The notes beneath the pieces were generated by a model. That model made no database searches. It saw only the letters and a program-made list of their open reading frames with translations, and was not told the origin of the DNA. This document shows positions 46,771 through 64,000 of a stretch of 64,000 nucleotides of DNA, one piece after another; the first letter of the stretch is position 1, and each line of letters opens with the position of its first letter. The translations under genes and the position numbers were made by a program. This DNA is from Alphaproteobacteria bacterium (GTDB lineage Bacteria; Pseudomonadota; Alphaproteobacteria; SHVV01), in assembly GCA_965261735.1 (NCBI GenBank), contig OZ253470.1, positions 288,001-352,000 on the forward strand, in the 5' to 3' direction.

Positions 46771-46809
46771 AAACAACGGCGGATGCGAAGCGATGCCCGA
46801 GCAGGCTAG

Positions 46810-47655: not shown

Positions 47656-47745
47656 GGCCGAGCCAGCCAATCGGCCATCAAACCGGTGACCGCCTCGGGT
47701 TCCTCCATGGTCGAGAGATGGCCGCAGCGGGGCAGCAAATTGAAG

Positions 47746-47877
47746 GGCTTTGTCAAGTTAACCGTATTCACTTCGAAATCTCGGTAAATTTTCGGTGGCT
47801 CTATTATGCAATTGCAATGGCTTCGCCTCATGGAAAAATGGCGAAAACAGTCTACGATCAGTTAACTTGACAATGCT
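47746..47877 (+). mobile_element. 132-bp MITE, copy 1 (TIR GGCTTTGTCAAGTTAAC)
   Basis: Terminal inverted repeats; homologous to 50842-50973 in the opposite orientation. Confidence 0.8.
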
Positions 47878-48192
47878 CGGATCGGGCCTGCCGCTGATCT
47901 CGTTCGACGTTCTCGACACTGCCATCTCAGCCGAGACGGCTCTATATGCCTGAGCTAGACTATCTCGACCACGGGCGCGTCATCTTGCCGACGAACGCGG
48001 ACCCGGCGATCGTGCAAGTGGAGGGCTATGAGCGGTTGTATCTCGGCCTCGATCTTGGCCGGCGCGACCCGACGGTGCCGAACGCCCTGACCAAGCGGCT
48101 GGTCAACCACGCCCCACCCAACGATTTCACGGAAGGCTACGCCGCCGACTGGACCATCGGGCAATTACGCGACCCCGCGCAGAGAATCGCCG

Positions 48193-48230
48193 ACCGTATC
48201 GAGGCATTGATACCGTATCGAGGCATTGAT
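48193..48230. repeat. 19-bp perfect tandem duplication ACCGTATCGAGGCATTGAT
   Basis: Read directly; lies inside a decayed ORF. Confidence 0.9.
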
Positions 48231-48319
48231 GATGAACGACCACGCACCCGCGACGGAGACGTCATAGCACTCCTGCCGACGAGTCGACCAGACCAAGTGC
48301 GGACCCCGGCCGTGAATAC

Positions 48320-48410
48320 AGGCTTGCGCATGGTTGGCCTCGCGCCCTCGGCTTCGACGGTGAAGCCGCTTGTGGCGGAAGCGGGGATCGAATCGGAAAT
48401 CCTATACAGC
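48320..48410 (+). pseudogene. Fragment of a TraA/TrwC-type relaxase-helicase
   Basis: 'GLAPSASTVKPLVAEAGIESEIL' resembles helicase motif Ia of MobF relaxases. Confidence 0.45.
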
Positions 48411-48676
48411 GGTTCCTGGCGCGTAGCGCCGGTATCGCCGCATGGCCGCTCACGAACCGGGGTGCCCGCAGATATGACGGGGCCGATGAGGGCTTGACGC
48501 TCATACATCGCGACCCGGACACCCACAGGCGGCTCGTCAGGCCCGTCCTGCTCGCGGGCCCGACCCATGATGCGGATAGATATGTCGAAGAAGCGTTCAA
48601 TCTCTCTAACGATTCGCAAGTGGCTGATCGCTAGACGCTGAATGTTGGACGAACCGAAGTGCGAAGACGGCGTGGA

Positions 48677-49110
48677 CTAGGCGTCATGGCGGGCTGCCCA
48701 TTCATCTTCCTCAGTACGGATCCCCTCGCTCGCGGCAGCAAGCGCGCGCAGGGTCGCCTTGGCCCAACGTCGTACCCTCGCGGATGGATGCTCGTCACGC
48801 AGCATTGACAGAGGTGCCTCGTAGAGCGCGAAGTATCCCGTTGGTGAGCCCCAGCCGCAGTACGAGTGGATGTTGCTTCCAACAGCTTGAAGCACGTCTT
48901 CACGGTCCCCGAACTCTTCGAGCAATCGAGCCACGCACGGGTGCAGGGAGTGCTCTTGAGCATCCCGGTTGTAGGTCGTGAGTACGGGCACCACCGTTGC
49001 CGTGAACGCCGGGGCACCGTCGGGATGAGCTCGGCACCACTCGAACAGGACGTCCTCCGGAAGACTGAGAATGGCAGCGTCGTGACGTTCATCGGACGAC
49101 AGGCGGCTCC
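48677..49110 (-). pseudogene. C-terminal fragment of a large hypothetical protein, cut by IS630
   Basis: Codon-like frame 'LHPCVARLLEEFGDREDVL…VRRWAK' runs up to the IS630 boundary (CTAG at 49111). Confidence 0.45.
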
Positions 49111-49722
49111 CTAGCAGATAGCCGAGACGCCAACCCCGAACGCGGTCCGAAAGGATTGTCTGGCCGACGATGGGCCATGATCCAGGCGCTCGACCGCACC
49201 CAACCCGGCTTGCCGATGAAGAAGGGCCGCGCCGGTACGATGACCTATGATTACAAACGGCATGGCACGACGACGCTGTTCGCCGCGCTCAACGTGCTGG
49301 ACGGTACGGTCATCGCACAGAACATGCAGCGCCACCGCCATCAGGAGTTCATCCGCTTCCTCAACCGCATCGAGCGCGAGGTGCCGACGGACAAGGCCGT
49401 CCACGTCATCCTCGACAACTACGCCGCGCACAAGAAGGACAAGGTCCGCGCCTGGCTCGCCCGCCATCCACGCTGGACCTTCCACTTCACGCCAACCTCG
49501 TGCTCGTGGCTCAATGCCGTCGAGGGCTTCTTCGCCAAACTAACGCGGCGCAGGCTCAAATACGGCGTCTTCCAATCCGTCGTCGACCTTCAGGCCGCCA
49601 TCAACCGATTTGTCCGCGAATACAATGACGCAAACCCAAAACCCTTCATCTGGAAAGCCGACCCCGATCATATCATCGCCGCACGAAACAGAGGGTTCCA
49701 AACGTTGGAATCAATCCACTAG
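49111..49722 (+). mobile_element. IS630-family element with an internal deletion
   Basis: '[12 protein letters not shown]…YKRHGT…ILDNYAAHK…[10 protein letters not shown]…PKPFIW'. The N-terminal HTH and first catalytic Asp (DEK) are missing. Bounded by CTAG. Confidence 0.85.
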
Positions 49723-49843
49723 CACCGCTTAGCTGACGAACGCCGCTATGCGGCGCAATCGGGCTTGACCGGTGATCGTACTACTATCTGACTTCCGATT
49801 TGACTATGGTACACGGCCTAGGATTCAGACATGAGATACCTCC

Positions 49844-50794
49844 TTGACCAATACGGACTATCTGGACTTCGGCAGCCTGTTTTCCGACGCCGACTCCAAA
49901 TTCACGCGATCCGCGGGACTCGACGATTTAAGGGCTAGCTTCTCCGATGTCCTGATCACGAGCGCCATCGCCAAATGTCTGGACTTCAACAAATTTGCCC
50001 AGGAAACCGACTCGCAAACCGACTCGCACACGCCTGCATTCTTCCTGGTGGCCAACGTGCGCGCGATGTGTGAAGAGCTCATCTACTGCTCGCTGTTCAG
50101 GCTTGTTGGCCAACAGAGTTCGGATGAACTGGTGAAGAGGCTAAATCACCATGCCCTGCTAAGAAACGTCCACACGCAGTCGAGGTTCTTCGCGCTGAAC
50201 AACCAGCAGCAACCGACATTCGGCAGTTTAGCGGAATCGACCGAACAGGAGGCCGCCATTGAGCAGGCGTCCGCAGCCGTTAACGACGTTTGGAAGCGAC
50301 TTGGCGTGATTGAAGCAAGTGATCGCCGCCCACCCTCCATCTGGCGACTCTCGCGTAAGGTGGGGCTTGAAACGACGTACGACTACGCTTACCACCTCAC
50401 ATCCAACTTCGTCCACTTCAATCCAGGTCAGCTCTTGCGGACCGGATGGGGTCCGATGGAAGGCCCCTTCTCGTTCTGTGTTGACAATTTCGAAGGCTAC
50501 TTCTCGAACCTTGCCCGATTTCTAGGTGCGCTCGTTTTCCTGGGATACTGCCGCCTGGCCTCCGACAAATTCGAGCCTGACGCGGCCAATCGGTACGTCG
50601 ACGCCATAACCATTCAGCTGCAAGGCAAGTTCAGGTGGCCGGAGATCACCACCTACGAAGAAATGAACCAGACCTGGCCCAACAGTATCATCTTGCGTTC
50701 CCTCATGACGGTAATGAGGCAGGAGGACCCGAACGCGATGTCGAACGTTCTCTGCGAACTGCGGGGACTAGCCAGCCTCAGCGCGGTGTCCTGA
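49844..50794 (+). CDS. Hypothetical protein, DUF5677/HEPN-like
   Basis: Long intact ORF; 'RAMCE' and 'YHLTSNFVH' motifs. Confidence 0.6.
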   Translation: MTNTDYLDFGSLFSDADSKFTRSAGLDDLRASFSDVLITSAIAKCLDFNKFAQETDSQTDSHTPAFFLVANVRAMCEELIYCSLFRLVGQQSSDELVKRLNHHALLRNVHTQSRFFALNNQQQPTFGSLAESTEQEAAIEQASAAVNDVWKRLGVIEASDRRPPSIWRLSRKVGLETTYDYAYHLTSNFVHFNPGQLLRTGWGPMEGPFSFCVDNFEGYFSNLARFLGALVFLGYCRLASDKFEPDAANRYVDAITIQLQGKFRWPEITTYEEMNQTWPNSIILRSLMTVMRQEDPNAMSNVLCELRGLASLSAVS

Positions 50795-50841
50795 GACTCG
50801 GTCGAGTACCGAAGCCGTCAGGCCGTCGAACGAGCCGCGCA

Positions 50842-50973
50842 GGCATTGTCAAGTTAACTGATTGTAGCCTGATTTCGGCATTTCTCCATGAGGCTAAGCC
50901 ATTGAAATTGCGTAAAGCAGCCATCGACGATTTCCCGAGATTTGGGAGTGAATCTGGTTAACTTGACAAAGCC
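50842..50973 (-). mobile_element. 132-bp MITE, copy 2
   Basis: GGCATTGTCAAGTTAAC…GTTAACTTGACAAAGCC; its reverse complement aligns with copy 1 over the full length. Confidence 0.82.
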
Positions 50974-51346
50974 GTCGAGCCAGTTCGATCAGCCGCCCAA
51001 GAAATTGCCGGGCAAAGACGTCGAGCATCGGGTACCGGGACAGTGCGCGAATATCGCTCGGCGGCAACGGCGTACCCAAGCGGCGCCGGCGTTGCAGCAT
51101 CTCAAGGAAGACCTGCCGCGTTCGTTCCTGCTGGGGATCGTCGTCGAGATCGATCTTCGGCAGAATCTCCAGGACGGTACCGCTGCTCGTGCTGACGATT
51201 CCCACATAGTCGCTGGCGGCGAGATCGCCATCGCGACGTTTGAGCACTTTCCGGGCGAACCCTTGGAGTTCCGCGATGTCCTTGGCCGAGATGGTCGGTC
51301 CTGGCTTCAGCGTGTCGTGATCCCAGACCGTATGGACCGACGCCAT
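50974..51346 (-). pseudogene. mcrC: McrC-family protein N-terminal fragment truncated by the MITE
   Basis: 'DYVGIV…GTVLEILPKID…FLEML…PMLDVFARQF'; the frame runs into the MITE TIR. Confidence 0.7.
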
Positions 51347-51464
51347 CAGCTATCTTCCAGCGTCGGTCGACGTAATCGTCGTAGTCCTCGATGAACCGCC
51401 CACCCCCACGTTGACGAATCTCCAGGCAACCGCCGACGCTAAATTGCGTCTCCATGTCGCCGCC

Positions 51465-52649
51465 CTAAGCGTGCTGCGTCTGCTGTTTGAAAAAGCCACC
51501 GGCGCGGAGCAGCTTGACGGCGTGCAACATGACAGCCGTGACGACGATCTGCCCGTTCGCCGCCTTGGTGATCTCGTCCGGAATGAGGGTAATTCCTTCC
51601 CAAATCGGACTGACCATATCCCGACGCGAACCAAGCCGGATCACGGCATTCTGCTTGTTGCTCGCAGCGGCAGGGACGTGAGCAGAGACTTTCACGCCAG
51701 CCGTGACGGACATAAGGTCCTCTAGCGCCGCACGGTCGCCCGCATTGTCGGAACGGAACACGCCAGCGGCATGGCCATAGGTCGAAGCGCCCATGACAAT
51801 GCGGAGATCGCCAACGCCCCCGGCGTAGGTTCCGTCCACGCGGCCATAACCCAATTCGCTGCGATAGTTGGCATAACTCGTGACGGCGGCGACGTTGTGA
51901 TTCGCCAAATTTGTGCCGGTGAAAAGCCCGTTGGTCCCGGCCAGGATTTGCTTGTCGAGTCCATCGGCCAGCGCGTCGGACAGGTTCATGCGCAGCGCTT
52001 CGTCCATGCTAGAGAATCGGGCACGATCCTCGCGAGAATAGAAAAAGCTCGCCTGCAAGCGCGAAGGCGAAAGCACGTCCGCAGCGAATGAGCCGGTCGT
52101 CTCCGCAGCCGGTCCATTCTCTGCGGGCGTATGAACATCGGCGTTCGTGCTGAGAACGGGATAGACCGCTTCGCCAACGGCAACGGTCGGCATATCCACA
52201 GACATGAAAGCCGCGCACGATTGCGGAAACACGCCAGGGATTATAGCGCTCTGATTCTGCGCCACCTGCCCCGGCGCCGGAGTGACGGCGCGAGTCTCAA
52301 GCAAGGTCAACGGGACCTGATTTGCACCAAGGCCAAAGTGCTGCTGAAGCTCGGCGGTATGGCCATCAGTCTGACGGTGTTCCAACGTCGCGGAAAAGAT
52401 CGCCCCGACATCCGAACCATCGATCAGACTGCGAAGCTCGCGACCCTCAGTGTCTTCGAAACGCGTCTCAGCCGGCGAATCTTCCGATGTGACGGAAGCC
52501 TGATACTTGGCTTCAACGTCCACATATTCGGTTCGCAGCGTCCCGATTTCGGAGCGCAGCTCGTCCGTCATTTCCTCAATCGCGGCCAGCTCAGCAAGCC
52601 GCTTGCGAATTTCAGAAGCACGCAAAGCATGGGTTTGACTGGCGAGCAT
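51465..52649 (-). CDS. Phage major capsid protein (HK97-like, coiled-coil scaffold N-terminus)
   Basis: 394 aa; N-terminal coiled coil, HK97-type pattern ('LADGLDKQILAG', 'LIPDEITKAANGQIVVTA'). Adjacent to HNH and terminase. Confidence 0.8.
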   Translation of the reverse strand: MLASQTHALRASEIRKRLAELAAIEEMTDELRSEIGTLRTEYVDVEAKYQASVTSEDSPAETRFEDTEGRELRSLIDGSDVGAIFSATLEHRQTDGHTAELQQHFGLGANQVPLTLLETRAVTPAPGQVAQNQSAIIPGVFPQSCAAFMSVDMPTVAVGEAVYPVLSTNADVHTPAENGPAAETTGSFAADVLSPSRLQASFFYSREDRARFSSMDEALRMNLSDALADGLDKQILAGTNGLFTGTNLANHNVAAVTSYANYRSELGYGRVDGTYAGGVGDLRIVMGASTYGHAAGVFRSDNAGDRAALEDLMSVTAGVKVSAHVPAAASNKQNAVIRLGSRRDMVSPIWEGITLIPDEITKAANGQIVVTAVMLHAVKLLRAGGFFKQQTQHA

Positions 52650-52771
52650 TTCTCTGGACCTCTGGCAAATTGATAGAAGATGCCAATACTCGGTCTAGAC
52701 TTGGCTCAGGGATATAGCGACTTTCCTCAATAGTAATTGACTTTCTCCAGAAGAGATAAAGGGTATAATTG

Positions 52772-52969
52772 GCAACCCCGGCAAAGCGTCTGGAGGCTGT
52801 TCGGATCGTAGGGGTCCTGTCCAGGATCGCGCTCTAATGGTGTGACGTGATCGCATTCTAGCCGTCCCGCCTTGCCGCACTGGACACAACGCCAGCCGTC
52901 ACGCTCGAAGACAGCGCGGCGTACGGCGTCCCAGCGGCGAGCATTCAGGTGGGTGTGGTGGCGGCTCAT
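52772..52969 (-). pseudogene. Phage HNH endonuclease, truncated
   Basis: 'RRWDAVRRAVFERDGWRCVQCG…LECDHV…NSLQTLCRGC', then unrelated AT-rich sequence replaces the final His. AAGGAGG RBS. Confidence 0.75.
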
Positions 52970-53033
52970 GTCCTCCTTTGCGAGAATAGTTTTAGAGGGG
53001 ACACAGGGCGTCACTCTGTGGCACCACTCACCA

Positions 53034-53543
53034 TCAGCGGCATGTCGTGATGCCGTCGGTAACTTTCTTTTGCCAGTTAAGCCCCAAGACGCGTTTAGCG
53101 TCCAACGCATTTTGATAGCCAGAATCTCCCGTATTCATCATGAAAACCTGCATCTGTGCGCTATTGCGTCCGGTCACCACCGTGATGGGCGGTGTGTAGG
53201 TTCGAAAATTGCCGTGCGCGGTTCGTCCGACAGTGTTCACAGTTCCGGTGGTGTACGAATTCGAACCCGGGACTTGGTGGACTTGCACGTTGCTATCCGT
53301 TCCAACTCCACTTAGCGAAAAGCGTTCATAACCCTGCCGCAGCGTAGCGACAGCTGCCATTTGATTTGCAACTCGCAGGGCTCCAGCAGTTCCGCAAGCT
53401 GGAGCTGCACTAGTCGAAACAACTGCCTGATTTCTTGAGGTTTGTAATATTTCCGTGCGCGCACAGGCAGTTAACCCAAACATCACAGCCAAAGCAGCGA
53501 CGGCGACGGCGTGCTGTCCCCAGCAGCGTTTACATAAGTCCAT
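53034..53543 (-). CDS. Lipoprotein of unknown function (cargo/moron)
   Basis: Lipobox LTAC, 'SAAPACG' motif, GGAGG RBS. Confidence 0.7.
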   Translation of the reverse strand: MDLCKRCWGQHAVAVAALAVMFGLTACARTEILQTSRNQAVVSTSAAPACGTAGALRVANQMAAVATLRQGYERFSLSGVGTDSNVQVHQVPGSNSYTTGTVNTVGRTAHGNFRTYTPPITVVTGRNSAQMQVFMMNTGDSGYQNALDAKRVLGLNWQKKVTDGITTCR

Positions 53544-53662
53544 CAGTTTTCCCCCTCCTGATACAAATTCACAAACGGCCGCCCTGAAGGCAATGGCCAG
53601 TCCGCCCTTCAGGCACCGTCCGTGTCCGTCTGTCTCATTAGGGGTTCCCCGCCCGTGCTCGA

Positions 53663-54373
53663 TCAACAGTCGAAATCAGCTGCCAGAACATCTCTCAGAC
53701 GTTGTTTTTCATTGTCAATAAACTGTTCCTTTTTACTTTCTCCATTTATTGCATGTATGTGACTTACACACTCTGATCCAATTTCTAACAATGTTACCAA
53801 GTCATTTCTTACCTGTTTGTCGTTGTGAATTATTTCTCCATATTCGTTGGACCACCCCATCAACACGCTTCTTGCTGATATATGAGTCGAATCATTCCAC
53901 CAATTATTTCTTTTTCTCATCCAAATCACAGTATCTGGGAGTACACCTTTCTCGTGAAGAGCATCCCACATCGCACGTAGACTCGGACGTTTTTTTTCAC
54001 TGGTCAAAGTAGTCCATTCCCTACGCTGGTCTTCGAAACTTCTAGTTAGAAAACTTTTGGCCTCCTTGTCGCCTGCGACGAATTCGAACCACATTCCACT
54101 AGTGAAACTCTCCAACATTGGTCTCTGCGTTATTCCGAACACCAGGCCTTCTCGCCGGTTTTCTAAACACCTCTTCAGTAGGTCCGCCCCCAATCGTGCT
54201 ATCCTCACCGTGGCGTTGTACTGCAAAATGGCTGCCGTACCTTTCAACCCAATTGTTGCAATGTAGTGCTCGCGAGGTTTCTTCGAACGTTCAACCTCTA
54301 GCTCCCAGTCCGAAAGACTTCGGTGAATTTCGTCTAGTATTTCGCTCAAATCAGCTGTCGACTGTATTGGCAT
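53663..54373 (-). CDS. Low-GC hypothetical protein (possible DUF5677/HEPN-like)
   Basis: Intact ORF with RBS; 'RPMLES' and 'NDSTH' motifs. Confidence 0.6.
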   Translation of the reverse strand: MPIQSTADLSEILDEIHRSLSDWELEVERSKKPREHYIATIGLKGTAAILQYNATVRIARLGADLLKRCLENRREGLVFGITQRPMLESFTSGMWFEFVAGDKEAKSFLTRSFEDQRREWTTLTSEKKRPSLRAMWDALHEKGVLPDTVIWMRKRNNWWNDSTHISARSVLMGWSNEYGEIIHNDKQVRNDLVTLLEIGSECVSHIHAINGESKKEQFIDNEKQRLRDVLAADFDC

Positions 54374-54633
54374 AGGTGCCGTCTCCTTCTACAGAGCCCC
54401 GCCCACCGAACTGGCTGCGCTTGCGCTGCGTCTGCTGGCGCAGTCGTCGCGTTCGAAGATGGCCTGAGGGCGGGCGTTTAAGTTTAGAAGGTGATGACTC
54501 ATCCCGCCAGCACCGCGCACCGCGCCTCGGACATGGCCGCCGCCAGCAACGGGCGAGACGACTCGGCGACCATTAACGGCCCATCCGCCGGTAGTGCCAG
54601 CGCGCCCGGTACAACGTGTCTTGTGGGATCGAG

Positions 54634-55045
54634 TTATACCATCCCCAGATAGACTCCGGCCCGCGGCCCAGCCTGAAGGCCCGACCTGATCCCGGCGGAC
54701 ACGGCCAAGATCGCCGCCGCGCTCGCGTCATCCTTGGCTCTCATTCGGCGCCCGCCTTCCGAGCCCTTGGCGAGTTTTTGATTTCCGGATGGGTCGCTGA
54801 TCGTCCTGGCTTCGGCCATCGCGCTCCGGAGCAGGAGTGATGGTGACGGCGACACCCGCCCCTCAGCGCATGCGCGGCGGAATTGTCGGACATCTTCGGC
54901 GCCGTCGCGGTAGCCCATGCCACGCACTTCCAGCGCGGCCGGGGGTACGCCGGCGGCCTCCAACGCGTCGCGCAATTCGGCTTCTCTCCAGCGGTCGGCG
55001 ACCACAAGATCAGGCCGGCCGAAGCGTTCCATGCCGGCTCTCAGG
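54634..55045 (-). pseudogene. Phage terminase large subunit, C-terminal fragment
   Basis: 'VVADRWR…RGMG…DPSGNQKLAK…KDDASAAAILAV' resembles the nuclease-domain end of HK97-type TerL. Confidence 0.7.
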
Positions 55046-55201: not shown

Positions 55202-57706
55202 TCAAGGCTCTACGAGGACAAAGTCCGAGCCACGGGAGTAGCCGACGGGGACTTGGCTGATCGGCTCCTGCACTAGCCTGTAGGCGAGAGTGGGCATCTC
55301 CAACGTCACATAGTCGATGATCTCCCGCACGGAGACCCGTCCGTCGCTTTCTCGGTCGCCCATGCCGTCGGCAGCCCCGTGGATACCTTCGATGACGAGG
55401 TACGTCAGTGCACCGTGAGGTACAACCTGAAGCTCTGTGGCGTTCTCATGAGCCCGGGATGCAGCGAGAATGTGGATGCCGCCGACGCGGGCAAGACGCC
55501 GCAACGATTTCTGCGCGACCGTGTCGTCGAGACCGCCGCCACGCGAATTCGATAAGGCGTCGAACGCCCCCACAACCGCACCGGAGCGACACGAATCGAG
55601 GATGAGGAACACGCGTTGAGCACGTGCGCGCGTCAGCAGCTGCATAAGTCGTTTGCTGGACAGCCCGAAGCGGCGAATCTGCGCATCATGGTCGGCCTGC
55701 GAGGTCGCCTCGCGCTTCCACTCGCTCGTGAACGGGAGAAGGTACCACTCCCATCCGCCTCTCTCGCGAAACGCATATCCGTGGCCCGAGAAGTAGATCA
55801 CAAGCACATCGTTGGGCGACATGGAGGCTTCGAGAATACGTTCCTCGATTGCGGGCTTATTGGCCGACGCGTCGAGCAGTGTCACGGTCTGGACATCGGC
55901 AAAGACGCTGCCTCCTCGTTCGCGCAACGCGGAGACCAAGGCCTGCGCGTCGTTGCGCGCGTAGAACAATTCCCACGCTCGACGGACATAGTCGTTGATT
56001 CCGATGGCGACCATGCGCAGGGCGGGACGGGAAGGAGCCGCAGAGACGACCACGCTGCGTACCGGCGACGGCGGTCCCTCAATGCCACCGTATCCGACAC
56101 CGAGAGCCCGGAATTCATTGCGCCCGGGCGCCAGGGGCAAGCGAAACCGGGCAATTCCATCGGCCTTATCCAGCCGACCGTCGGGGACGAGCTTGGCGTT
56201 GTGATAAAGACGGATCTCAGATAGCAGCTTCACCGGGTAGTCGGATTCCGCCCGCCGCACTGTCACCGATATCGTTTCGCCCGGAACCCGACTATCGGAG
56301 GGCATCGGATCAATCACGACCCGGGGCGGACGGAGATAGCCTTCGTCGGAAAGGTCGTCGACCTCTGCGGTGAGGTAGTCGGCCCCATCGGGCGCCCCAA
56401 GCTTCGCCAAAAGCCCCGGCTCGAAATAGGGCTCCGAGAACGCATCGACCGGCAGATCATAACGGATTCTGGTTGCGGTCTCGCCTGACCAAGAGAGCGC
56501 ATCGACTCCCGCCTGCGAGCCGTCGAAGCGCCCGGCACGGTCGAGCACCGTCCAGCCCTGGGCGGTGGAGACGAGCCAGCCGACCGCTGTTGGCTCCCGG
56601 CTCTCAAGCGAATGGATGGCTATGGTCCCATCGTCCTCACCGCCGAAGACCCATTGTCTCGAGGTATCGAGCAGGAGCGGCTGTGAATAGCCCGGGGAGA
56701 ACTCTACTGACGCCAAGCGTCGGATCTTCCCGGACACCGTCCAGACCTCAACCAAACCGCCAGAGCCACGTGCCGCAATGCGAGTCCCGTCTCCGTTCAT
56801 CGCAAGTGCCTCAACCGTGCCGCCAAGCCGCTTGGTCGGCACGGTGAAAAGCCTCCTCGGCGCATTCTCGTCTGCCAGCGTCCACGCGCACAGATGCCCG
56901 CGTGCATCACCGAGCACGACGCGCGTTCCGATTGGTGTGAACACCCCCGTAGTGATCGGAACACCGCGGGCACAGCCCTTGAGGCGACCCAGGATCCGCA
57001 CCCCCGAGCCGGTGATCCGCCCATGGATCAGAGTGCCAGCCGCCGCAGGATAGACCACAGTGGACCCGTCGGGCGAGAGGATGGGCTGCCCCTCGCCGGC
57101 AGCATCGGAGAGTGCGACCGGGCGAGCGCCTATCGCGGCGACATGCCAGCGGCCATCACGGGTGCGAAATGCCATTGCGCTACCATCGGCCGAGAGCGAG
57201 GGGGTGGAACTGGCATCGAAGCCCCGGATGGCGGCCCCGAGGGCGCGGTGTTCGCCGTCGAGGTACAGCGCGCTCGTCGACCCATCGCGGTGGACGACCA
57301 CAATCTCGGCTGAACGCCCGGCCCCTCGAACAACTCCGGCGACAATGTCGCCAAAGCGCCCGCTGACCCGCATGCCGCGTTCGAGATCCCACAGATGCGC
57401 GGCTCCATCGGCATGCACAGCAAGAATCAGGCGCCGGGTCTTATCGGCGGAAAAAGCGATTGTGGCACCTGCCCGGCGCTGGGGGTCGATAACGAGCGTG
57501 GGTCGAATCCGGAATCGTTGGGGCTCGCTTACGATCCGTTTCCATGAGTCCAAAGTAGGCCGCGCCATCCCTTGCACGACGCTCCGCATGGTCGCTTCAG
57601 CGGGGTCCGCGCAGACGAAGGTGAGCACGGCGCCGGTGAGCAGCAGGGCAAGCACGCGCCTCCAAGGAAACGGTCCGATGACAAGATTCACCGAGACTGA
57701 GCCCAT
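55202..57706 (-). CDS. Exported WD40/beta-propeller + caspase (peptidase C14) protein
   Basis: Signal-like N-terminus, propeller repeats, 'IGINDY', His 'YFSGHG', Cys 'ILDSCRSG', 'HGALT'. Confidence 0.88.
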   Translation of the reverse strand: MGSVSVNLVIGPFPWRRVLALLLTGAVLTFVCADPAEATMRSVVQGMARPTLDSWKRIVSEPQRFRIRPTLVIDPQRRAGATIAFSADKTRRLILAVHADGAAHLWDLERGMRVSGRFGDIVAGVVRGAGRSAEIVVVHRDGSTSALYLDGEHRALGAAIRGFDASSTPSLSADGSAMAFRTRDGRWHVAAIGARPVALSDAAGEGQPILSPDGSTVVYPAAAGTLIHGRITGSGVRILGRLKGCARGVPITTGVFTPIGTRVVLGDARGHLCAWTLADENAPRRLFTVPTKRLGGTVEALAMNGDGTRIAARGSGGLVEVWTVSGKIRRLASVEFSPGYSQPLLLDTSRQWVFGGEDDGTIAIHSLESREPTAVGWLVSTAQGWTVLDRAGRFDGSQAGVDALSWSGETATRIRYDLPVDAFSEPYFEPGLLAKLGAPDGADYLTAEVDDLSDEGYLRPPRVVIDPMPSDSRVPGETISVTVRRAESDYPVKLLSEIRLYHNAKLVPDGRLDKADGIARFRLPLAPGRNEFRALGVGYGGIEGPPSPVRSVVVSAAPSRPALRMVAIGINDYVRRAWELFYARNDAQALVSALRERGGSVFADVQTVTLLDASANKPAIEERILEASMSPNDVLVIYFSGHGYAFRERGGWEWYLLPFTSEWKREATSQADHDAQIRRFGLSSKRLMQLLTRARAQRVFLILDSCRSGAVVGAFDALSNSRGGGLDDTVAQKSLRRLARVGGIHILAASRAHENATELQVVPHGALTYLVIEGIHGAADGMGDRESDGRVSVREIIDYVTLEMPTLAYRLVQEPISQVPVGYSRGSDFVLVEP

Positions 57707-57716
57707 CGCCCCAGAC

Positions 57717-59753
57717 CTACTGCGCCGGCATCACGGTCTCGTAGACCAGAATCGCGACAGAGCGATGAGAGTATTCTTCACCAGCGCGAAGCGCCTCGGC
57801 AAGCTCGACGAGATAGGCCTTGGGGCGCTCGACGACAGAGAGATCCTTGTGCCGCGAAGTCAGCGCGTCGACCTGAGAGGTCTCATCAGACACGACGGCG
57901 ACCAGCATCCCGAGGCCGACCGGCGGGCTCACCCGCAAGCGGAAGGATTGGTCGGGACCACTCTGAGGCACATGTTTCGCCTCACCTGCGCGCACATGCA
58001 CCGGAATACCGCTCGCTAAACTGAACTCATTGGGAAATATCTGCACCATGTCGCCCGTCGCATCGATATCGAGCAGCACGAGCTGGCCATCGCGGGGACT
58101 TGTGACGACGACCTCAAGCTCGGAGCCGACCTGAAGGCGCGTGCCCTGCCTGATGCGAAGGTTCACGCCGTTTCCGGGCTCCGCAGCGGTGCCCGGTGCC
58201 GGTCCGACAAGGATGTCTTTGACCGCTTTCGCCTGCAGAGGGAGCGATACGGCGACGGGTAGAAACGCGGGAGCGTCCATCGCATTCGAGGCACCATGGA
58301 GCTGCGGGGTGAGCCCACGCGGGCAGCGATTCGTGTGCCGCGCGCAGTAAGCTTCAGACTCGCGGAGCACGTACTCGTGGAGTTCTGAACGGGTTACGAC
58401 CCCATCGTCGTCGGCATCGGCCTCAGCGTCCCTCATTCCGGAAAGGATCCTGCGGGTGAACACGCTCAACGGACGGCCGCGCAGCTCCTCGTCCACGAGC
58501 GCCTTCTGATGAGCCGCGACTGCAGTCCACACTGTTACATCGGCCGTGCGAAGCTGCGGGTCCTTCGCCGAGAGGAACGCCTCGGGGACCGAAGTCGAGA
58601 CGGCTTGGCTCGCACCTACGGCTCCGAGGCGTAGCGGCCCGCCGTCAGGGCGGCGCGGGCTCTTGACATAGCGCCACCCCTCGCCGACTACCGAGATCCG
58701 GTCACTGGTGCCGGAGTGACAGGCATCGATGACCACGTTGACGCGGCGTCCGGAGAGCCGATTGAGCAATGTCGCCATCTCGTCATCCGTGATCATGCCC
58801 GCAATGGTCTCATCATCGCGCACGACCACGTCAACGGGCACGAGAGTCTCGTCGAAACGATCGGGCTCGTCGCCGTTCGTATCGGGCTGCTGGAAACCAT
58901 GGCCGCTGAAGAATAGAAAGATCTCATCGCCCGGCCTCGTCCCTTCAACAAGCCATTCCTCGACTTCACGAAGAATATTGGCCCTGGTCGCCTCGGCATC
59001 GAGCAGGAGTCGGACGTCGCCGGTGTCAAACCCGAGATCGTCGGTGATAAACGCGTGCATCGCCTTCACGTCGTTGACCGGGCCCACCAAAGGCGAGACA
59101 TGTTGATAGGCATCGATGCCTATCAACAATGCCTTGCGCGCTGAGTGCAGGGGTAAGGACGGCACACCGCCTCCGGCGGTCGGCCCCAGTAGCACGACCT
59201 CGACGCGGCGATTGCGCGCATCCTCACCCGGCACGCCGGGCAGCGAAAATTCCTCTCCCAAGCCAACCTCGACGAGCCTGTGCGCGGCGATGTGGTCCGC
59301 GACCAGACGGCGTTTGACGGCGCTAGCGCGCCTCAGCGAGAGTGCCCGGTTGTAGGCTCGATCACCTACACTGTCGGTGTGGCCCTGCACCGCGAAGACG
59401 AGGGAGCCCAGCGCGTCAAGCTTGAGCGCCTTCGCAAGCTCCGTGACCTGTTCCTGTGCACGAGGGGTCAGCCGATCGGAGTCGAACTCGAACTGAATGG
59501 CAGGCAGCGCGATTCGCCGCGAGACCGGATGCTCGGCAGGCGATGGCTGAGAAGCGCCAGGATCTTCACTGGCGGGCTCGTACTCGACCTTTCTCTTCCT
59601 CCCGGATGGGAGCGGAGTCGCTGGCGAGAGCTGGCTGGCGATCGCCTCAGCGGGAACGATGGGAGAAAATTCGGATGCGGTACTGATGCTCGATGAGCAC
59701 ACTCCAAACATGGCGAACACCAGTAGAAATCGCAGGAACGAGGTGCCGGTCAT
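57717..59753 (-). CDS. Exported OmpA-like + metacaspase + DUF4384 fusion protein
   Basis: OmpA 'GHTDSVG…YNRALSLRRA…NRRVEV'; 'KALLIGID', 'FSGHG', 'DETLVPVD', 'DACHSG'; C-terminal 'MVQIFPN'. Alternative start at 59852. Confidence 0.88.
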   Translation of the reverse strand: MTGTSFLRFLLVFAMFGVCSSSISTASEFSPIVPAEAIASQLSPATPLPSGRKRKVEYEPASEDPGASQPSPAEHPVSRRIALPAIQFEFDSDRLTPRAQEQVTELAKALKLDALGSLVFAVQGHTDSVGDRAYNRALSLRRASAVKRRLVADHIAAHRLVEVGLGEEFSLPGVPGEDARNRRVEVVLLGPTAGGGVPSLPLHSARKALLIGIDAYQHVSPLVGPVNDVKAMHAFITDDLGFDTGDVRLLLDAEATRANILREVEEWLVEGTRPGDEIFLFFSGHGFQQPDTNGDEPDRFDETLVPVDVVVRDDETIAGMITDDEMATLLNRLSGRRVNVVIDACHSGTSDRISVVGEGWRYVKSPRRPDGGPLRLGAVGASQAVSTSVPEAFLSAKDPQLRTADVTVWTAVAAHQKALVDEELRGRPLSVFTRRILSGMRDAEADADDDGVVTRSELHEYVLRESEAYCARHTNRCPRGLTPQLHGASNAMDAPAFLPVAVSLPLQAKAVKDILVGPAPGTAAEPGNGVNLRIRQGTRLQVGSELEVVVTSPRDGQLVLLDIDATGDMVQIFPNEFSLASGIPVHVRAGEAKHVPQSGPDQSFRLRVSPPVGLGMLVAVVSDETSQVDALTSRHKDLSVVERPKAYLVELAEALRAGEEYSHRSVAILVYETVMPAQ

Positions 59754-59848
59754 GACGATGGACTCATTGGCGAGAGGTGGCGAAGGGAGGCACTGCCTGC
59801 TACGGGAGCCGCGCGACAAGGGGAGGAAGATGCTCGGCCGAACACGCA

Positions 59849-60445
59849 TCAATGCGCCACCACCGAGGTCTGGAGTGTCGCCACACTCCAGTCGTCGGGA
59901 TTTATCCGTCCGAGTGCATCGTTCAGGCGACGGTTATACTGCGCGGGACTCAAATCGAGCGTGGCGATACCGCCAGCCTCTTTCAATAAATCTGCCCCCG
60001 AGAGGAACTCCAGGGGGCTGCGGGTCGCGACCAAATAGAAGGCTTCGTCTCCTGCGGGTGGCTTGACGACGATCTGAACGCCGCTCTCGGACAGGGGAAA
60101 GTCGATGATCTCCGCAGGGCGCATTGCGAGGTTGTGGATGAACCTCGTCACCTTGCATGACGTGCTCACGTGGAAGAGGCTGAGGAAAGAGGGGGAGCTG
60201 ACCCGCATCTGAAGACGAAGCGGCTCGCCCACGTTGAATCGGCCATCGGGCACTGCCCATGCTTCGACCACGAACTTGCGACCCTCGTATATGGTCGGCA
60301 ATTCGCACTGTGATGCGTATGCAGGCTTGGCGAGAAGCACTGCAACCGACAAAGACGCGACAACTAGAAGCAAGAGGCTACGAGGATGGATGGCGCTCGA
60401 CATGACGTCAGTCTCCGTTGCAGGTGCTTCACTGCGCAAAGCCAT
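59849..60445 (-). CDS. Exported DUF4384-like protein
   Basis: Signal peptide; 'VGEPLRL…VKPPAGDEAFYLVATRSP'. Confidence 0.75.
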   Translation of the reverse strand: MALRSEAPATETDVMSSAIHPRSLLLLVVASLSVAVLLAKPAYASQCELPTIYEGRKFVVEAWAVPDGRFNVGEPLRLQMRVSSPSFLSLFHVSTSCKVTRFIHNLAMRPAEIIDFPLSESGVQIVVKPPAGDEAFYLVATRSPLEFLSGADLLKEAGGIATLDLSPAQYNRRLNDALGRINPDDWSVATLQTSVVAH

Positions 60446-60461
60446 AACGGCAAAAAGGGAC

Positions 60462-61112
60462 CTACTCGATGTAAATGACTTGATGCTGTCCCACCCAGTG
60501 CGAATGAGCCTTCTTCAGCGAGATGCTTAGATCCTTAGCAACCGAGGCCGCATCGCCCCGAAGCGCCAGGAACGGCCCTGCCTGAGTCTCCTGATCGATC
60601 AAATCCTGTGCCAAGGGAGCACTGTCCTTCGATGCGATCACGGTGAGCAGTTCAGCCCCCTTCGGGTGGGAGACGACGAACTGGTAGTCGGCCTCCTGGC
60701 GCGGGATGGCGACCGGATTGTCCGCGAGCACAAAGTTGTCGCTCTCGTAACGGTTGGGGTAGACTTGATGCACCTTTCCGCTCGTACCGGTGTCGAATAC
60801 CCATACGTACGCGTCCTCGCTCACCTCGACGGTGATCACGAGGCTATCACCGTGGCTGTAGCGACCATCGGAGCGGTCGACCGCGGTCCTGACCGAAAGC
60901 CCCGGAGCCTCAGACTCCGGCTGGCTCGCGGGTATCGGCGCGAGATCCGCCATAGGGACCTGCCGGATATCGAGGTCCTTGAGATACACTGGTTCGGCGT
61001 TGGGTTGGGCGTCATCACCGCTCGCAAGTGGCGCTCCGAACTGGGTGAGCGCGAGAAACGCGGCCAAGGCAAGGGCTGCGCCCAAGGCGGGAAGCCGGGG
61101 TGAAGTGGCCAT
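60462..61112 (-). CDS. Exported DUF4384 protein
   Basis: AGGAGG RBS, signal peptide, 'YSHGDSL…DAYVWVF…GKVHQVYPN…PKGAELLTVIAS'. Confidence 0.8.
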   Translation of the reverse strand: MATSPRLPALGAALALAAFLALTQFGAPLASGDDAQPNAEPVYLKDLDIRQVPMADLAPIPASQPESEAPGLSVRTAVDRSDGRYSHGDSLVITVEVSEDAYVWVFDTGTSGKVHQVYPNRYESDNFVLADNPVAIPRQEADYQFVVSHPKGAELLTVIASKDSAPLAQDLIDQETQAGPFLALRGDAASVAKDLSISLKKAHSHWVGQHQVIYIE

Positions 61113-61163
61113 CGTTTTGTCCTCCTTTTAGCTAGTGTTGAACAAGTCAGGTACAGACTGCGA

Positions 61164-61856
61164 TCATCGACCGACAACTGAGGTTCGAAGGGTCAGAATG
61201 CTCCAGTCATCGGGATTGATCCTTCCGCGCGTATCATCCAAGCGCTCGTAGAACTGAGCTGGGCTCAGGTCGAGACTGGCGATGCCCGCGGTCTCACTCA
61301 AGATGTCGGCGCCGGAGAGAAAATCCATCGGCGACCGGGTTGTCACGAAGTAAAACGCTTCCTCGCCCGCCGGCGGCTTCACCGTCATCTGAAGCCCGCT
61401 CTCACGGAAGGGAAAATCAACGATCTCGGCAGCGGCCACCGAGCGATTCTCCAATAGCCTGGTCACTTTGCACGATGTGCTCACGTAGAAGATATTCATG
61501 TATGCTGTCGTGCTTACCCGCATCTGAAGACGAAGTGGCTCACCAACATCGAAGTTCGCATCGGGAATGGCCCACGCCTCGACGACAAACTTACGCCCTT
61601 CGTTGAGGTCAGGAAGTTCGCACCTATCCGTTTCGACAGGAACTTCTGTTTCGACAGGAACTTCTACTGGGAGCTCGACGGGGACTTCAATAGGAACTTC
61701 TACCGGCACTTCGACGACTTGGGGCTGCTGACAGGCCGCGAGTACTATCAGTATTCCGAGTAGCGTGAGTGAAACGCCGATACTACGCACAAAACATGCT
61801 GTCGGCAGATGACGAATGACGTCGCCGTCGCCGCTCCTCCTAATTGAGCCTTTCAT
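61164..61856 (-). CDS. DUF4384-like lipoprotein with a (VEVP)n linker
   Basis: Lipobox LAAC, VEVP repeats; domain is paralogous to 59849-60445. Confidence 0.75.
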   Translation of the reverse strand: MKGSIRRSGDGDVIRHLPTACFVRSIGVSLTLLGILIVLAACQQPQVVEVPVEVPIEVPVELPVEVPVETEVPVETDRCELPDLNEGRKFVVEAWAIPDANFDVGEPLRLQMRVSTTAYMNIFYVSTSCKVTRLLENRSVAAAEIVDFPFRESGLQMTVKPPAGEEAFYFVTTRSPMDFLSGADILSETAGIASLDLSPAQFYERLDDTRGRINPDDWSILTLRTSVVGR

Positions 61857-61934
61857 TGATTCGTCTCCTCTCAGTACTCGACGCAAGCCTGGTATCGGCC
61901 GTATCACCCTTCCGTGCGGTGCCGGCAACTACGT

Positions 61935-64000
61935 TCAGAATCGCAGCAGACCGATCACGCCCACACGATGTTCAGGATCGCCGGCATGGCTTTCGCGCCG
62001 CTCTCCCGAGAGCTCGAGAGTGAGAGCTGTCGATTCCGAATGAACTTGATTGTAGCGAGCTCCTAGGCGTGTACGCTGGCTATCCTCATCCCACCAGCCG
62101 AACTCGCCGAACGGTGTCAGAAGACCGTTCATCCCTCTGATCCCATAGCCCACACGGGCGTCCAACGACATCGCACTTGGATCACGCGAGCGGGATGCCA
62201 GCCGACCGAAACCATCATTGCGCCACAACGCGTCCGCTCCTCCCGTGTATTCACCCCAGCGCGGCGACAGCGACAGCGAGAGGCCAAGACCATCGGAGCG
62301 CGGCGACAGGCTCGCCGTCGCGCTCAGGCCGTACTCCTCGTAGTTCTCAGCCGAATGCAGGACCAGCGTCCGACCTCGCACTTCAAGACTGAAGCCACTG
62401 TAAGGATCGGAAAAGTACAACCCGGGGGAAAGCTCAAGTCCTGCTTCCACGTCGCCGTCACCACCGTCAAAGCGGTTGGCAACCTCCATGAACCACGTGA
62501 GGGTGCTGCCACCCTCCAGCTCTGCCGTGTACGAGCCCTCAACACCCATGTGTGCCCGCCAGACATCCACTGTGACCCCTGCGATCGCCTGCACGCCGTC
62601 TTCGGTCGACACTCGTCCGAAGCCCATGTCACCGAGCAATGCCCAGTCCAGCGGCTCGGCAATCTCCACCGCCCGACGCCCGCCTGTGGAGGCCATCCAC
62701 ATTGTGATGTCGCTTGTTTCTTTGGCGGACGTCGCACCGGGGCGCTTGTTCTCGAGCGTACCCCAGCCCGCGCCAAGAATGGCCCAGAGTTCGCTTTTCG
62801 GATTTGGTGCGAAGCGTATGTATGGAAGCAGGCTGGTCAGCGTGACGTCCATTTGCCCGTCATTACCGGCGCCGCTTATCCCGAGAGTGTAATCGGCCTC
62901 GGCCATGGTTCGCGACACCGCGACGCCCGCCAGCCATTGTTCGTCCACCTGCATGTCGACACCGAGATAGCCGGCCCTCAAGTCGCCGTCATAGCCCGAT
63001 CCTTGATCCGGGTCGCTGCTGAAATACTGCAGATCGCCTCGCCCCCATAAAACCCACTGCGCCGCCGCTTGCGCTTGTGCGCTTTCGCTGGCCCCAAGGA
63101 CGACCTGAAAATCGGTCGAGCGCAATAGATCATCAGAGCTGAGCGCCCAAGAGTGACTTTCGCTTGTTCCCTTTCGCTTGTTATAAAGAGAGTTCCAGGG
63201 CTCATCTTCAAACGCGCCGTGTTGTGTGGCAGACAGTCCGGCTAACGAGAGGCTCGTGCCGCCGCGCGCAGAGGAGAAACGCGCTCCGATGTTTGTGGTC
63301 ACGTTGGACACCGTGGATGCGGTTACAGTGGCCAGGGTGTTGGTCGCTGCTGCTTTCTCTATCTCATCTACAGGAGGCCCTTCGATTACCGTGACCGAGA
63401 CGGGGCCAGCGGCGGTCACGTTACCGTAGCCGGTTACAGAGTGATTAATGGTTACTCTGTTATTGATGGTATCGTCGTCTTGGGCCGTGCTCACCGTGAA
63501 GGTCTGGGGCTCATTGCGGGTAGTAAACGTTAGGCTCTCGGGCAGGATTGTGACATCAAGATTGTCGCTTTGCGGTGTGACTATGACGGCACCATCGGGG
63601 TTTGTTGTCAATTCGACCATGTAGAAACCACTCTCTCCTTCTACAATCGTCAGCCGGCTCACGGACAAGTGCACTCCACCAATAACGTCGTTATCCTGCA
63701 CCGTGACCAAGACAGTTCCGCGAGCGATCACGTCTCCATCGACGGAGTGGGAGAGAATTGCGGTATCATCAATGGCGTCGTCGTCCTCGGCGGCACTCAC
63801 CGTGACGGTCTGAGGCGCACTGCCGGCAGTAAACTTCAGGTGATCGGGAGAGAGGGTCACCTCTTGATTGCTGCTGCTTAGCAAGACGGTGACTTCGCCA
63901 CTGGGGTCGCTTGTCAATTCGACCGTGTAATTCCTGCTCCCGCCTTCTACTATCTCTAGCTGGCTCACGGACAGGCGCACGTCATCGTCATCTACAATCC
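61935..64000 (-). CDS. Autotransporter with Calx-beta/Ig-like passenger repeats, partial (5' end outside the window)
   Basis: About 95-aa repeats 'V.LSVS.L.IVEG.S..Y.VELT..P', a beta-barrel region ('WGRGD', 'YLGVD'), terminal Phe. Frame is open to the window end. Confidence 0.85.
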   Translation of the reverse strand, partial: IVDDDDVRLSVSQLEIVEGGSRNYTVELTSDPSGEVTVLLSSSNQEVTLSPDHLKFTAGSAPQTVTVSAAEDDDAIDDTAILSHSVDGDVIARGTVLVTVQDNDVIGGVHLSVSRLTIVEGESGFYMVELTTNPDGAVIVTPQSDNLDVTILPESLTFTTRNEPQTFTVSTAQDDDTINNRVTINHSVTGYGNVTAAGPVSVTVIEGPPVDEIEKAAATNTLATVTASTVSNVTTNIGARFSSARGGTSLSLAGLSATQHGAFEDEPWNSLYNKRKGTSESHSWALSSDDLLRSTDFQVVLGASESAQAQAAAQWVLWGRGDLQYFSSDPDQGSGYDGDLRAGYLGVDMQVDEQWLAGVAVSRTMAEADYTLGISGAGNDGQMDVTLTSLLPYIRFAPNPKSELWAILGAGWGTLENKRPGATSAKETSDITMWMASTGGRRAVEIAEPLDWALLGDMGFGRVSTEDGVQAIAGVTVDVWRAHMGVEGSYTAELEGGSTLTWFMEVANRFDGGDGDVEAGLELSPGLYFSDPYSGFSLEVRGRTLVLHSAENYEEYGLSATASLSPRSDGLGLSLSLSPRWGEYTGGADALWRNDGFGRLASRSRDPSAMSLDARVGYGIRGMNGLLTPFGEFGWWDEDSQRTRLGARYNQVHSESTALTLELSGERRESHAGDPEHRVGVIGLLRF

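Follow-up and report, generated by a model that had tools for sequence, protein, structure and literature searches.

To our knowledge, the few bacterial caspase homologues that have been studied all act in the cytoplasm. An earlier in silico study (Asplund-Samuelsson et al. 2012, PMC3501461) inferred that many prokaryotic metacaspases possess N-terminal helices that are possibly signal peptides, that some contain peptidoglycan-binding domains and that 14 metacaspase operons include OmpA. Fusions of a caspase with DUF4384 or with WD40 have already been catalogued as well, and DUF4384 is listed among the accessory domains of orthocaspases and among those of kinases. The domain is often fused to protease domains, and in Csx30, which serves the caspase-like Csx29 as substrate, it forms one group of the C-terminal domains (10.1101/2022.08.17.504292). 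No function is given for DUF4384 in the literature consulted. Here we describe an operon located at positions 55202-64000 of a stretch of 64,000 nucleotides (nt) from an alphaproteobacterial genome (contig OZ253470.1, positions 288,001 to 352,000), in the following called the window. It encodes an autotransporter, three small DUF4384 proteins and two C14 (caspase-type) proteases with putative export signals.

The operon belongs to the known but uncharacterised multi-domain C14 protease operons of bacteria. The original prediction, which was made from the letters of the window, had called it an undescribed envelope system, and this statement stands in part. The literature searched contained no paper on this cassette, queries for "periplasmic caspase/metacaspase" and similar terms returned unrelated papers only, and it seems to hold no description of the conserved five-gene cassette, of the OmpA fusion or of the association with a barrel protein. 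Exported metacaspases and OmpA neighbours, on the other hand, had been predicted in 2012 (PMC3501461), so that exported bacterial caspases are not a new idea.

Gene organization and leader sequences

Translation of the open reading frames (ORFs) showed that the minus strand of 55202-64000 is filled by six co-oriented ORFs, in the arrangement that had been expected:

61935-63998, minus strand: autotransporter (AT); the ORF runs off the end of the window, its 5' part is cut and the N-terminus with any leader lies beyond the window
61164-61928 (ORF), likely start M25 at 61856, minus strand: putative DUF4384 lipoprotein (D254)
60462-61112, minus strand: soluble DUF4384 protein (D216)
59849-60445 (ORF), likely start M15 at 60403, minus strand: soluble paralogue of D254 (D198)
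57717-59852 (ORF), likely start M34 at 59753, minus strand: OmpA-caspase-DUF4384 fusion (OCD711)
55202-57706, minus strand: WD40-Ig-caspase fusion (PC834)

With the likely starts the intergenic gaps are 10-95 nt, and the leader sits at the N-terminus of D254, D198 and OCD711. Leaders were assessed by eye and with a simple script. The five complete genes all encode one, as had been postulated: D254 contains a lipobox, and D216, D198, OCD711 and PC834 show a signal-peptidase-I-type leader with an A-x-A-type site after a charged n-region and a hydrophobic core. These leader features were seen again in the orthologues of D216, OCD711 and PC834. Taken together, the leaders, the lipobox and the conserved cysteine pairs described below fit the predicted export of the proteins.

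Domains were assigned by Pfam matches above the curated cut-offs; no NCBIfam model was matched above its own cut-off. The model NF047832 (EACC1-associated caspase) gave 70 and 59.7 bits with the two proteases at a cut-off of 140, and T9SS_PorE matched the OmpA part of OCD711 only, with 39 bits at a cut-off of 600. Scans for promoters and terminators found sites no more frequently than in shuffled sequence.

Conservation of the cassette

A scan of species-representative genomes yielded 63 loci, 21 of which (L001-L021) encode relatives that match beyond the OmpA part. According to their taxon titles these 21 loci belong to Alpha- and Gammaproteobacteria, Binatia and Syntrophobacterales; where a genome is metagenome-assembled, its label was given by the depositor. 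Genes of the D254 type and the D216 type lie beside the OCD711 gene in 18 of the 21 loci. As to the others, L010 starts at a contig edge and its upstream region is not judgeable, and L016 and L017 have 10 kb of upstream sequence without small DUF4384 genes. A PC834-type gene is likewise present in 18 of 21; it is missing downstream in L017, and the contigs of L015 and L016 end too early. A barrel gene was found in each of the 18 loci with the small genes, as an autotransporter of the window type in 12 cases and as an alternative barrel-like protein in six. The original prediction had depended on synteny in other genomes, and the survey recovered the same gene set in 18 of 21 related loci, a recurrence far beyond chance.

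The flanks of 10 loci had nothing in common, some containing housekeeping and some mobile genes. It is extremely improbable that the genes are unrelated neighbours without a common function. This explanation is contradicted by the synteny in 18 of 21 loci with different class and phylum labels and differing flanks, and also by the fact that the domains are fused or adjacent in further combinations elsewhere. The pairwise-identity matrices of the components correlate (r = 0.57-0.85), which suggests that the components travel together; a point on the other side is that kinship alone could yield such correlated matrices. In the tree of OCD711 the window forms a group (support 100/100) with two loci, whose titles name Alphaproteobacteria in one case and Gammaproteobacteria in the other, and Binatia and Syntrophobacterales labels are nested among the proteobacterial ones. 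The mixed labels fit a horizontal spread. It is well supported that a five-gene core, consisting of an outer-membrane barrel protein with a variable, adhesin-like passenger, a DUF4384 lipoprotein, a soluble DUF4384 protein and two C14 proteases with predicted Sec export, forms a self-contained and horizontally spread envelope operon.

The mobility of the cassette bears on one alternative, an envelope defence or suicide module. Here the variable surface passenger or a wall-anchored sensor would detect attack by phages or predators, and abortive infection would follow when the periplasmic caspases destroy proteins of the envelope. Next to the operon the window contains DNA of mobile elements and of defence systems (integrase, capsid, HNH and McrBC fragment; type III restriction-modification, GmrSD and a PRTase with the PADLOC assignment PRTase_III-A), a transposase, an integrase, HipA or a SLOG protein is encoded beside some of the related loci, OCD711 and PC834 match the PADLOC caspase model, and the mixed class and phylum labels are expected of a mobile cassette. 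However, the matches to PADLOC-DB 2.0 are at the domain level only (generic caspase, MotB of ZorB), and the three DUF4384 proteins and the autotransporter match none of its models. The operon contains neither an NTPase nor a nucleic-acid sensor, and housekeeping genes (dnaX/recR, mutS, secD, acyl-CoA carboxylase) flank the cassette at several of the 10 examined loci. We consider a defence function unlikely and follow the reading of the operon as a periplasmic proteolysis module.

One locus, L002, shows two peculiarities. Upstream of its cassette (316-8446) it encodes caspase-FGE-sulfatase, TPR-FGE-sulfatase and vWA/YfbK proteins, and its autotransporter and lipoprotein genes have shifted jointly to the 3' end of the cassette.

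The two C14 proteases

The domains of the two proteases are located as follows:

59250-59492, minus strand: OmpA-like domain of OCD711 (PF00691, 2.9e-16, 60 bits, cut-off 27.2)
58425-59138, minus strand: C14 domain of OCD711 (PF00656, 4.6e-23, 82.6 bits, cut-off 21.4)
57882-58136, minus strand: DUF4384 domain of OCD711 (Pfam, 3.6e-13)
56447-57499, minus strand: seven-bladed WD40 propeller of PC834, residues ~70-420 (model and Foldseek)
56045-56320, minus strand: Ig-like sandwich of PC834, residues 463-554 (model)
55205-56020, minus strand: C14 caspase domain of PC834, residues 563-834 (Pfam, 5.2e-08, 33.3 bits, cut-off 21.4)

The His-Cys motifs SGHG/DACHSG and SGHG/DSCRSG named in the original prediction are present in the translations, and both dyads are conserved across the orthologues. 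OCD711 consists of a signal peptide, the OmpA-like domain, a metacaspase-like C14 domain, a cysteine pair, an EF-hand-like loop and DUF4384. Its catalytic pair is His318/Cys378 in ORF numbering, which is equivalent to His285/Cys345 counted from M34. In all 41 aligned homologues H285, C345, D343, K364, P366, R367, C470 and C477 are invariant; D343 is located two residues before the catalytic cysteine and K364-x-P366-R367 just after it. For PC834, all 37 aligned homologues have H642, D704 and C706 unchanged, and D704 again precedes the cysteine by two residues. An aspartate at this position is presumably the marker of an Arg/Lys S1 pocket in metacaspases and orthocaspases. From these residues both C14 proteases are predicted, with good support, to be catalytically intact.

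The p20 part of OCD711 could be aligned with yeast metacaspase-1 (4f6o) with E = 6.8e-23, including the acidic loop after the catalytic histidine (D..GDE.D..DE..P.D). The caspase domain of PC834 is devoid of the metacaspase acidic loop, and a sequence search found no relative of it in the PDB; OCD711 and PC834 thus belong to different C14 subgroups. Both proteins share an EF-hand-like loop, DxDxDGxV..xE, and a pair of cysteines, C245/C273, is at least 90% conserved in the homologues of PC834.

The OmpA domain expected in the caspase fusion was found above its cut-off. The consensus residues T126, D127, N135, L138, S139, R142 and A143 are invariant among the homologues, and OmpA/Pal domains of the PDB were matched. 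We take T-D...N..LS..RA to be a peptidoglycan-binding motif, and the anchoring of OCD711 at the wall is a prediction from these residues. Searches with OCD711 returned 465 relatives at E<=1e-3 among 8000 scored candidates. All three Pfam domains are present in 115 of the best 120 relatives and the remaining five are shorter, which makes the OmpA-caspase-DUF4384 architecture common in the protein collection.

For PC834 128 relatives were found. The structural model of PC834 (mean predicted local distance difference test, pLDDT, 84; predicted template modelling score, pTM, 0.83) shows a leader helix followed by the propeller postulated for the second caspase, which has seven blades of the WD40 type. 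In a Foldseek search WD40 propellers were the best matches (E about 1e-13), one of them a designed seven-bladed propeller. A pairing of propeller and OmpA domain in the manner of TolB and Pal had been considered and was dropped because of the seven WD40 blades; the propeller of TolB is different. The Ig-like domain was also compared with DUF4384, as a possible hidden copy of it, and rejected at an hhalign probability of 0.8%. In one related locus (L001, 8043-9011) the PC834-type gene is truncated and stops after about 313 residues.

The DUF4384 proteins

DUF4384 (PF14326) had been proposed to occur four times, and four matches were obtained, with 79.5, 49.8, 42.9 and 38.4 bits at a cut-off of 27. 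The E-values of the small proteins are 5.1e-11 (D254), 2e-22 (D216) and 1.4e-09 (D198). Between the modules of D216, D254 and OCD711 the sequence identity is only 23-26%.

D254 contains the lipobox L-A-A-C, which agrees with the canonical pattern [LVI][ASTVI][GAS]C and has its cysteine at position 66 of the 254-residue ORF. A spacer rich in Val, Glu and Pro comes next and leads to an extended DUF4384 beta-sandwich with two conserved cysteines. A D254-type copy with a lipobox was found in all 19 cassettes (window and 18 loci); the lipidation itself is a sequence prediction. In E. coli an aspartate after the lipobox cysteine causes retention in the inner membrane (+2 rule). The +2 residue is aspartate only in L006 and L007, and by this rule D254 is predicted to reside in the outer membrane. 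In the same two loci the lipoprotein-type gene (L006 7659-9107, L007 7732-9108), with Asp after the lipobox Cys, encodes two DUF4384 modules in tandem. The D254 family has few members: among 1.84 billion, 15 representative clusters were matched at E<=1e-30 and 33 at E<=1e-10.

D216 is composed of a signal peptide, a short N-terminal motif, a disordered linker, the DUF4384 beta-sandwich, a helix and a final strand. In the AlphaFold model the core has a pLDDT >90 and the first 40 residues of the mature protein are disordered. The modelled domain is larger than the 81-position Pfam model, because the helix and the last strand follow the sandwich. Within the disordered N-terminus the motif K45-D46-L..Q51 (60960-60986) is invariant in 37 of 37 aligned sequences. 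D216 has 237 homologues at E<=1e-3. The sequence K-D-L was noticed at three places, in the N-terminal peptide of D216 (60960-60986), in its helix (K193-D194-L195, 60462-60560) and as an invariant H-K-D-L in the C-terminal region of OCD711 (57717-57960).

D198 is 65% identical to D254 over 158 residues and possesses a signal peptide, but neither the lipobox nor the spacer. A lipoprotein copy and a second copy of this type occur together only in the window and in L002; D198 is an accessory, occasional duplicate and not part of the core. Thus all three small DUF4384 proteins of the original prediction are real, while the core holds two of them, the lipoprotein type and the D216 type.

The combination of a lipoprotein and a wall anchor leads to a second alternative, a switchable tether or fibre. 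The DUF4384 sandwiches would join the outer membrane (lipoprotein) to the peptidoglycan (OmpA fusion) or would polymerise after trimming, and the caspases would cut the link and change vesiculation or surface display. The trimming variant resembles type V pili, in which lipoprotein pilins are cut by an Arg-specific clan CD protease. The extended Pro/Glu/Val spacer of the lipoprotein, the OmpA-like anchor and the beta-sandwich nature of the DUF4384 domains agree with such a tether, and the recurring K-D-L of D216 and OCD711 could hint at an exchange of segments. However, none of the Foldseek PDB matches listed for the D216 model, down to rank 50, had a pilin fold (FimA/Mfa1-like, type V pilus), D216 standing in for D254, and basic residues near the lipoprotein cysteine and spacer are common, not invariant. 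We regard a tether or fibre as quite improbable compared with a proteolysis module in which DUF4384 serves for docking. A search of the ESM Atlas with DUF4384 gave a best score of 0.87 with unnamed clusters, below the 0.9 line of the tool.

The autotransporter and the alternative barrel protein

The beta-domain of AT matches Pfam Autotransporter (PF03797) with 4.3e-11 and 43.5 bits (cut-off 26), and the last residue of the protein is aromatic (LLRF). A passenger of Calx/LapA/fn3-like repeats, which shows weak LapA and fn3_6 Pfam matches, is followed by a helix linker with a conserved motif and by the beta-domain of ~400 residues. Of 11 orthologues 10 passed the Pfam cut-off. The orthologue of L021 begins with a leader-like sequence, corresponding to the part of AT that lies beyond the window end. 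By its sequence AT is a type Va (classical) autotransporter, and export of the passenger is predicted. The last 400 residues of the orthologues are 40-69% identical to AT. The conserved barrel and the variable passenger point to the barrel or the envelope as the partner of the proteases and not to one particular adhesin. In L009 (7373-9156) the autotransporter gene is frameshifted and split into two frames.

The alternative barrel protein was found in L006, L007, L008, L012, L015 and L018, at the following positions in five of them:

L006, 5741-7669: alternative barrel protein
L007, 5985-7742: alternative barrel protein
L008, 6803-8323: alternative barrel protein
L012, 6993-8360: alternative barrel protein
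L018, 12689-14509: alternative barrel protein

It comprises a leader, an Ala-rich coiled coil and a C-terminal part of ~250 residues ending with KIFF, KFSW, KFFW or KVFF. In L018 the gene is situated between those of OCD711 and PC834, and in the other loci it is located upstream of the lipoprotein gene. Comparisons with AT by BLASTP and hhalign (probability 0.1) were negative, and a PDB profile search with the protein gave nothing useful. It cannot be called an autotransporter with confidence. In five of the loci with the alternative barrel an alpha/beta-hydrolase-like gene follows just after the PC834 gene.

Split versions in other bacteria

In several other bacteria the three parts of OCD711 are encoded by separate genes:

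Vogesella urethralis YM-1: OmpA, caspase-DUF4384, 152-residue gene product, TPR-CHAT; all with leaders
Uncultured betaproteobacterium: X-caspase, two small genes, caspase-DUF4384, OmpA; all with leaders
Limnobacter (L044), 5648-11371: WD40 protein, extracytoplasmic-function (ECF) sigma factor, 219-residue gene product, caspase, OmpA; WD40 protein and caspase with signal peptide
Steroidobacteraceae genome: OmpA, caspase; leaders
Azospirillum sp. TSA2s plasmid p2 (L064), 171784-192837: three annotated modules in 21 kb, OmpA-DUF4384-caspase, OmpA-caspase-caspase and OmpA-DUF4384-PEGA

As in the operon, the neighbourhoods of Azospirillum, Vogesella, Limnobacter and the betaproteobacterium contain the same three domains side by side with leaders, frequently accompanied by a WD40 protein or by another clan CD protease (TPR-CHAT or X-caspase). 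They differ from the operon in that the parts are unfused and that neither a D254-type lipoprotein nor an autotransporter was detected. The proteins are only 28-43% identical to OCD711, over part of the length. OCD711 can be regarded as a three-in-one fusion of this recurrent gene trio, which is an indirect sign that the three parts work together. The literature searched contained no study of split OmpA/DUF4384/caspase neighbourhoods.

The arrangement in Limnobacter L044 hints at a control by a sigma factor. It brings in a third alternative, signal transduction, in which a periplasmic caspase would cut a DUF4384 or anti-sigma-like partner and relay an envelope or host signal to gene expression, in the way known from regulated proteolysis of anti-sigma factors. 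The ECF sigma factor and the 219-residue gene product are encoded between the WD40 protein and the caspase and OmpA proteins. A comparable chain exists in type III-E CRISPR, where Csx29 cleaves Csx30, which holds an RpoE-type sigma factor and has, in one group, a C-terminal DUF4384 (10.1101/2022.08.17.504292). L044 is, however, a single case, and neither a sigma factor, an anti-sigma factor nor an inner-membrane transducer was found within the unit in the 18 full cassettes and the window. A signalling role is decidedly less credible than local proteolysis in the periplasm, and we rate it as very unlikely.

Genes for VirB type IV secretion, for a tubulin-like protein and for a protein with a PEGA domain adjoin the modules of L064. 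In a tblastn search OCD711 also matched genes on Rhizobium plasmids (H2-H15) which are annotated as "trypsin-like serine protease" and show ~33% identity over the caspase-DUF4384 part. They fit the trypsin-caspase(QC)-DUF4384 proteins that have been described (PMC6426788).

Proposed mechanism

We propose tentatively that the operon encodes a periplasmic module of regulated proteolysis whose components may dock via DUF4384 and WD40; as a whole this mechanism is plausible at best. The existence of a functional unit of exported proteins is much more secure. The sequences directly show the gene content, the domains, the catalytic residues, the conservation of the leaders and the synteny, and from these the export, the docking, the specificity, the substrates and the output are inferred. 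OCD711 would be located on the cell wall through its OmpA-type peptidoglycan anchor, and D254 would hang on its Pro/Glu/Val-rich spacer from the membrane, the outer one by the +2 rule. The DUF4384 sandwiches and the WD40 propeller would act as docking modules that gather the partners, and the proteases would cut after Lys or Arg in exposed linkers. Candidate cleavage sites are, in D216, the invariant K-D of the N-terminal motif and, in OCD711, the invariant K-(S/T)-P-R stretch that closely follows the catalytic cysteine. The output may act on the outer-membrane protein encoded in the operon or on the connection of the outer membrane to the wall, as maturation or turnover of the autotransporter during passage or assembly, or as release of a tether. 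A precedent for the maturation output is found in Rickettsia, where a dedicated peptidase matures autotransporters (PMC10414592).

The genes and domains seen in the original prediction are confirmed, and its interpretation is supported in part. It had also suggested that the periplasmic caspases perhaps process or shed the adhesin. Shedding of an already exposed passenger is unlikely, because it is topologically awkward and concerns the variable part of the protein. It is the weakest link of the earlier reading, since the proteases are predicted at the wall.

A number of observations weigh against the proposed module. The passenger is outside the cell, beyond the reach of wall-anchored proteases, and varies by locus (Calx-beta, PPC, fn3, He_PIG, LapA). 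In six loci the autotransporter is replaced by the unrelated-looking barrel-like protein, and only two of five of these proteins reach a weak Pfam Autotransporter match (best 5.3e-4). L016 and L017 hold the OmpA-caspase-DUF4384 gene without any partner gene, which indicates that this protein can stand alone. The call of export is based on motifs read by eye and with a simple script, and the basic residues in the post-Cys loop of PC834 are frequent, not invariant. As to the role of DUF4384, no function could be derived from its fold: Foldseek with the D216 model gave nothing at E<=1e-3, only generic Ig/MG/FnIII-like sandwiches, and a PDB sequence search with DUF4384 resulted in 0 matches and no function. 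A complex prediction with OCD711 206-675, the PC834 propeller 69-422 and D216 41-216 gave an ipSAE of 0.00 in two runs; the controls were not folded, and the result weighs neither way.

A more far-reaching version is possible but rather doubtful. In this version the operon could be the first caspase system of bacteria outside the cytoplasm. The wall-anchored metacaspase and the WD40-caspase would form a two-tier periplasmic switch with DUF4384 as dedicated caspase-docking and substrate domains; this switch would control either a protein of the outer membrane or the connection of that membrane to the wall and would be horizontally exchanged as a cassette. If true, DUF4384 would gain a function, bacterial caspases would gain a role apart from cytoplasmic cell death, and a protease layer would be added to the biology of the outer membrane and the cell wall. 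DUF4384 recurs in fusions with proteases and kinases. The operon combines two apparently intact caspase-type proteases, periplasmic by every sequence sign, with co-encoded candidate partners or substrates, and the set is conserved across distant lineages. Because the candidate partners are co-encoded and conserved, the question is testable with a handful of constructs, and the cultured Azospirillum, Vogesella and Limnobacter with their split versions offer genetic access.

Other features of the window

The positions 9072-17453 contain Dot/Icm-like type IVB secretion genes, namely a TrbI-like gene (9072-10208), DotH/IcmK (10198-11169, 1.1e-43), a TcpQ-like gene (12678-13850) and a T2SSE ATPase (14353-16173). 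Large ORFs without a Pfam match are located near these genes (503-2815, 5000-8122 and 18256-22343). A region resembling a defence island (25622-40113) comprises a type III restriction helicase, an N6/N4 methylase, GmrSD, an ORC-CDC6-like protein with PRTase-CE (PADLOC PRTase_III-A, 1.8e-24) and a C5 methylase. In the stretch 41296-55032 a tyrosine integrase (41296-42558) is followed by scattered phage remnants, among them a McrBC fragment (50894-51346), a capsid gene (51465-52649) and an HNH gene (52727-53110). At 53-54 kb the guanine plus cytosine content falls to 0.50. Three family-less ORFs (53034-55032) follow immediately downstream of the operon and are not conserved in the related loci. 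The window contains no tRNA genes.

Comparison with known systems

The operon resembles type IX secretion, an envelope machine in which a WD40 domain or propeller, an OmpA_C-like wall anchor, a lipoprotein and outer-membrane barrels are combined with a clan CD cysteine protease for the processing of surface cargo. In type IX secretion PorU is a clan CD sortase-like protein and PorZ a propeller protein. PorE is a TPR-WD40-CRD-OmpA_C lipoprotein (PMC12773672). The homology stops at the level of the domain class; the proteases of the operon belong to C14 and not to C25, the cargo route is of type Va, and the host taxa are different.

NalP and SphB1 are dedicated peptidases for the maturation of autotransporters. 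RapL of Rickettsia resembles the proposed arrangement in that a separate protease is needed for the processing of autotransporters (PMC10414592). In contrast to the proteases of the operon, RapL, NalP and SphB1 belong to other protease classes and are surface-exposed or membrane-bound. We know of no autotransporter-maturing peptidase of the caspase type.

Craspase (Csx29 TPR-CHAT and Csx30) also combines a caspase-like clan CD protease with a partner that ends in DUF4384 in one subgroup (10.1101/2022.08.17.504292). It is cytoplasmic, RNA-guided and linked to a sigma factor, whereas the operon contains no Cas genes.

Related catalytic domains are known from the type I metacaspases (Yca1, 4f6o) and the orthocaspases such as MaOC1 of Microcystis, which cuts a cytoplasmic antitoxin (PMC7935541). 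They have in common with the operon the C14 fold, the histidine in SGHG, the cysteine in D-x-C-H-S-G and the aspartate two residues before the cysteine, and OCD711 possesses in addition the acidic loop. Unlike these enzymes, the proteases of the operon carry signal peptides, are fused to OmpA and DUF4384 or to WD40 and Ig domains, and are encoded in an operon of envelope proteins.

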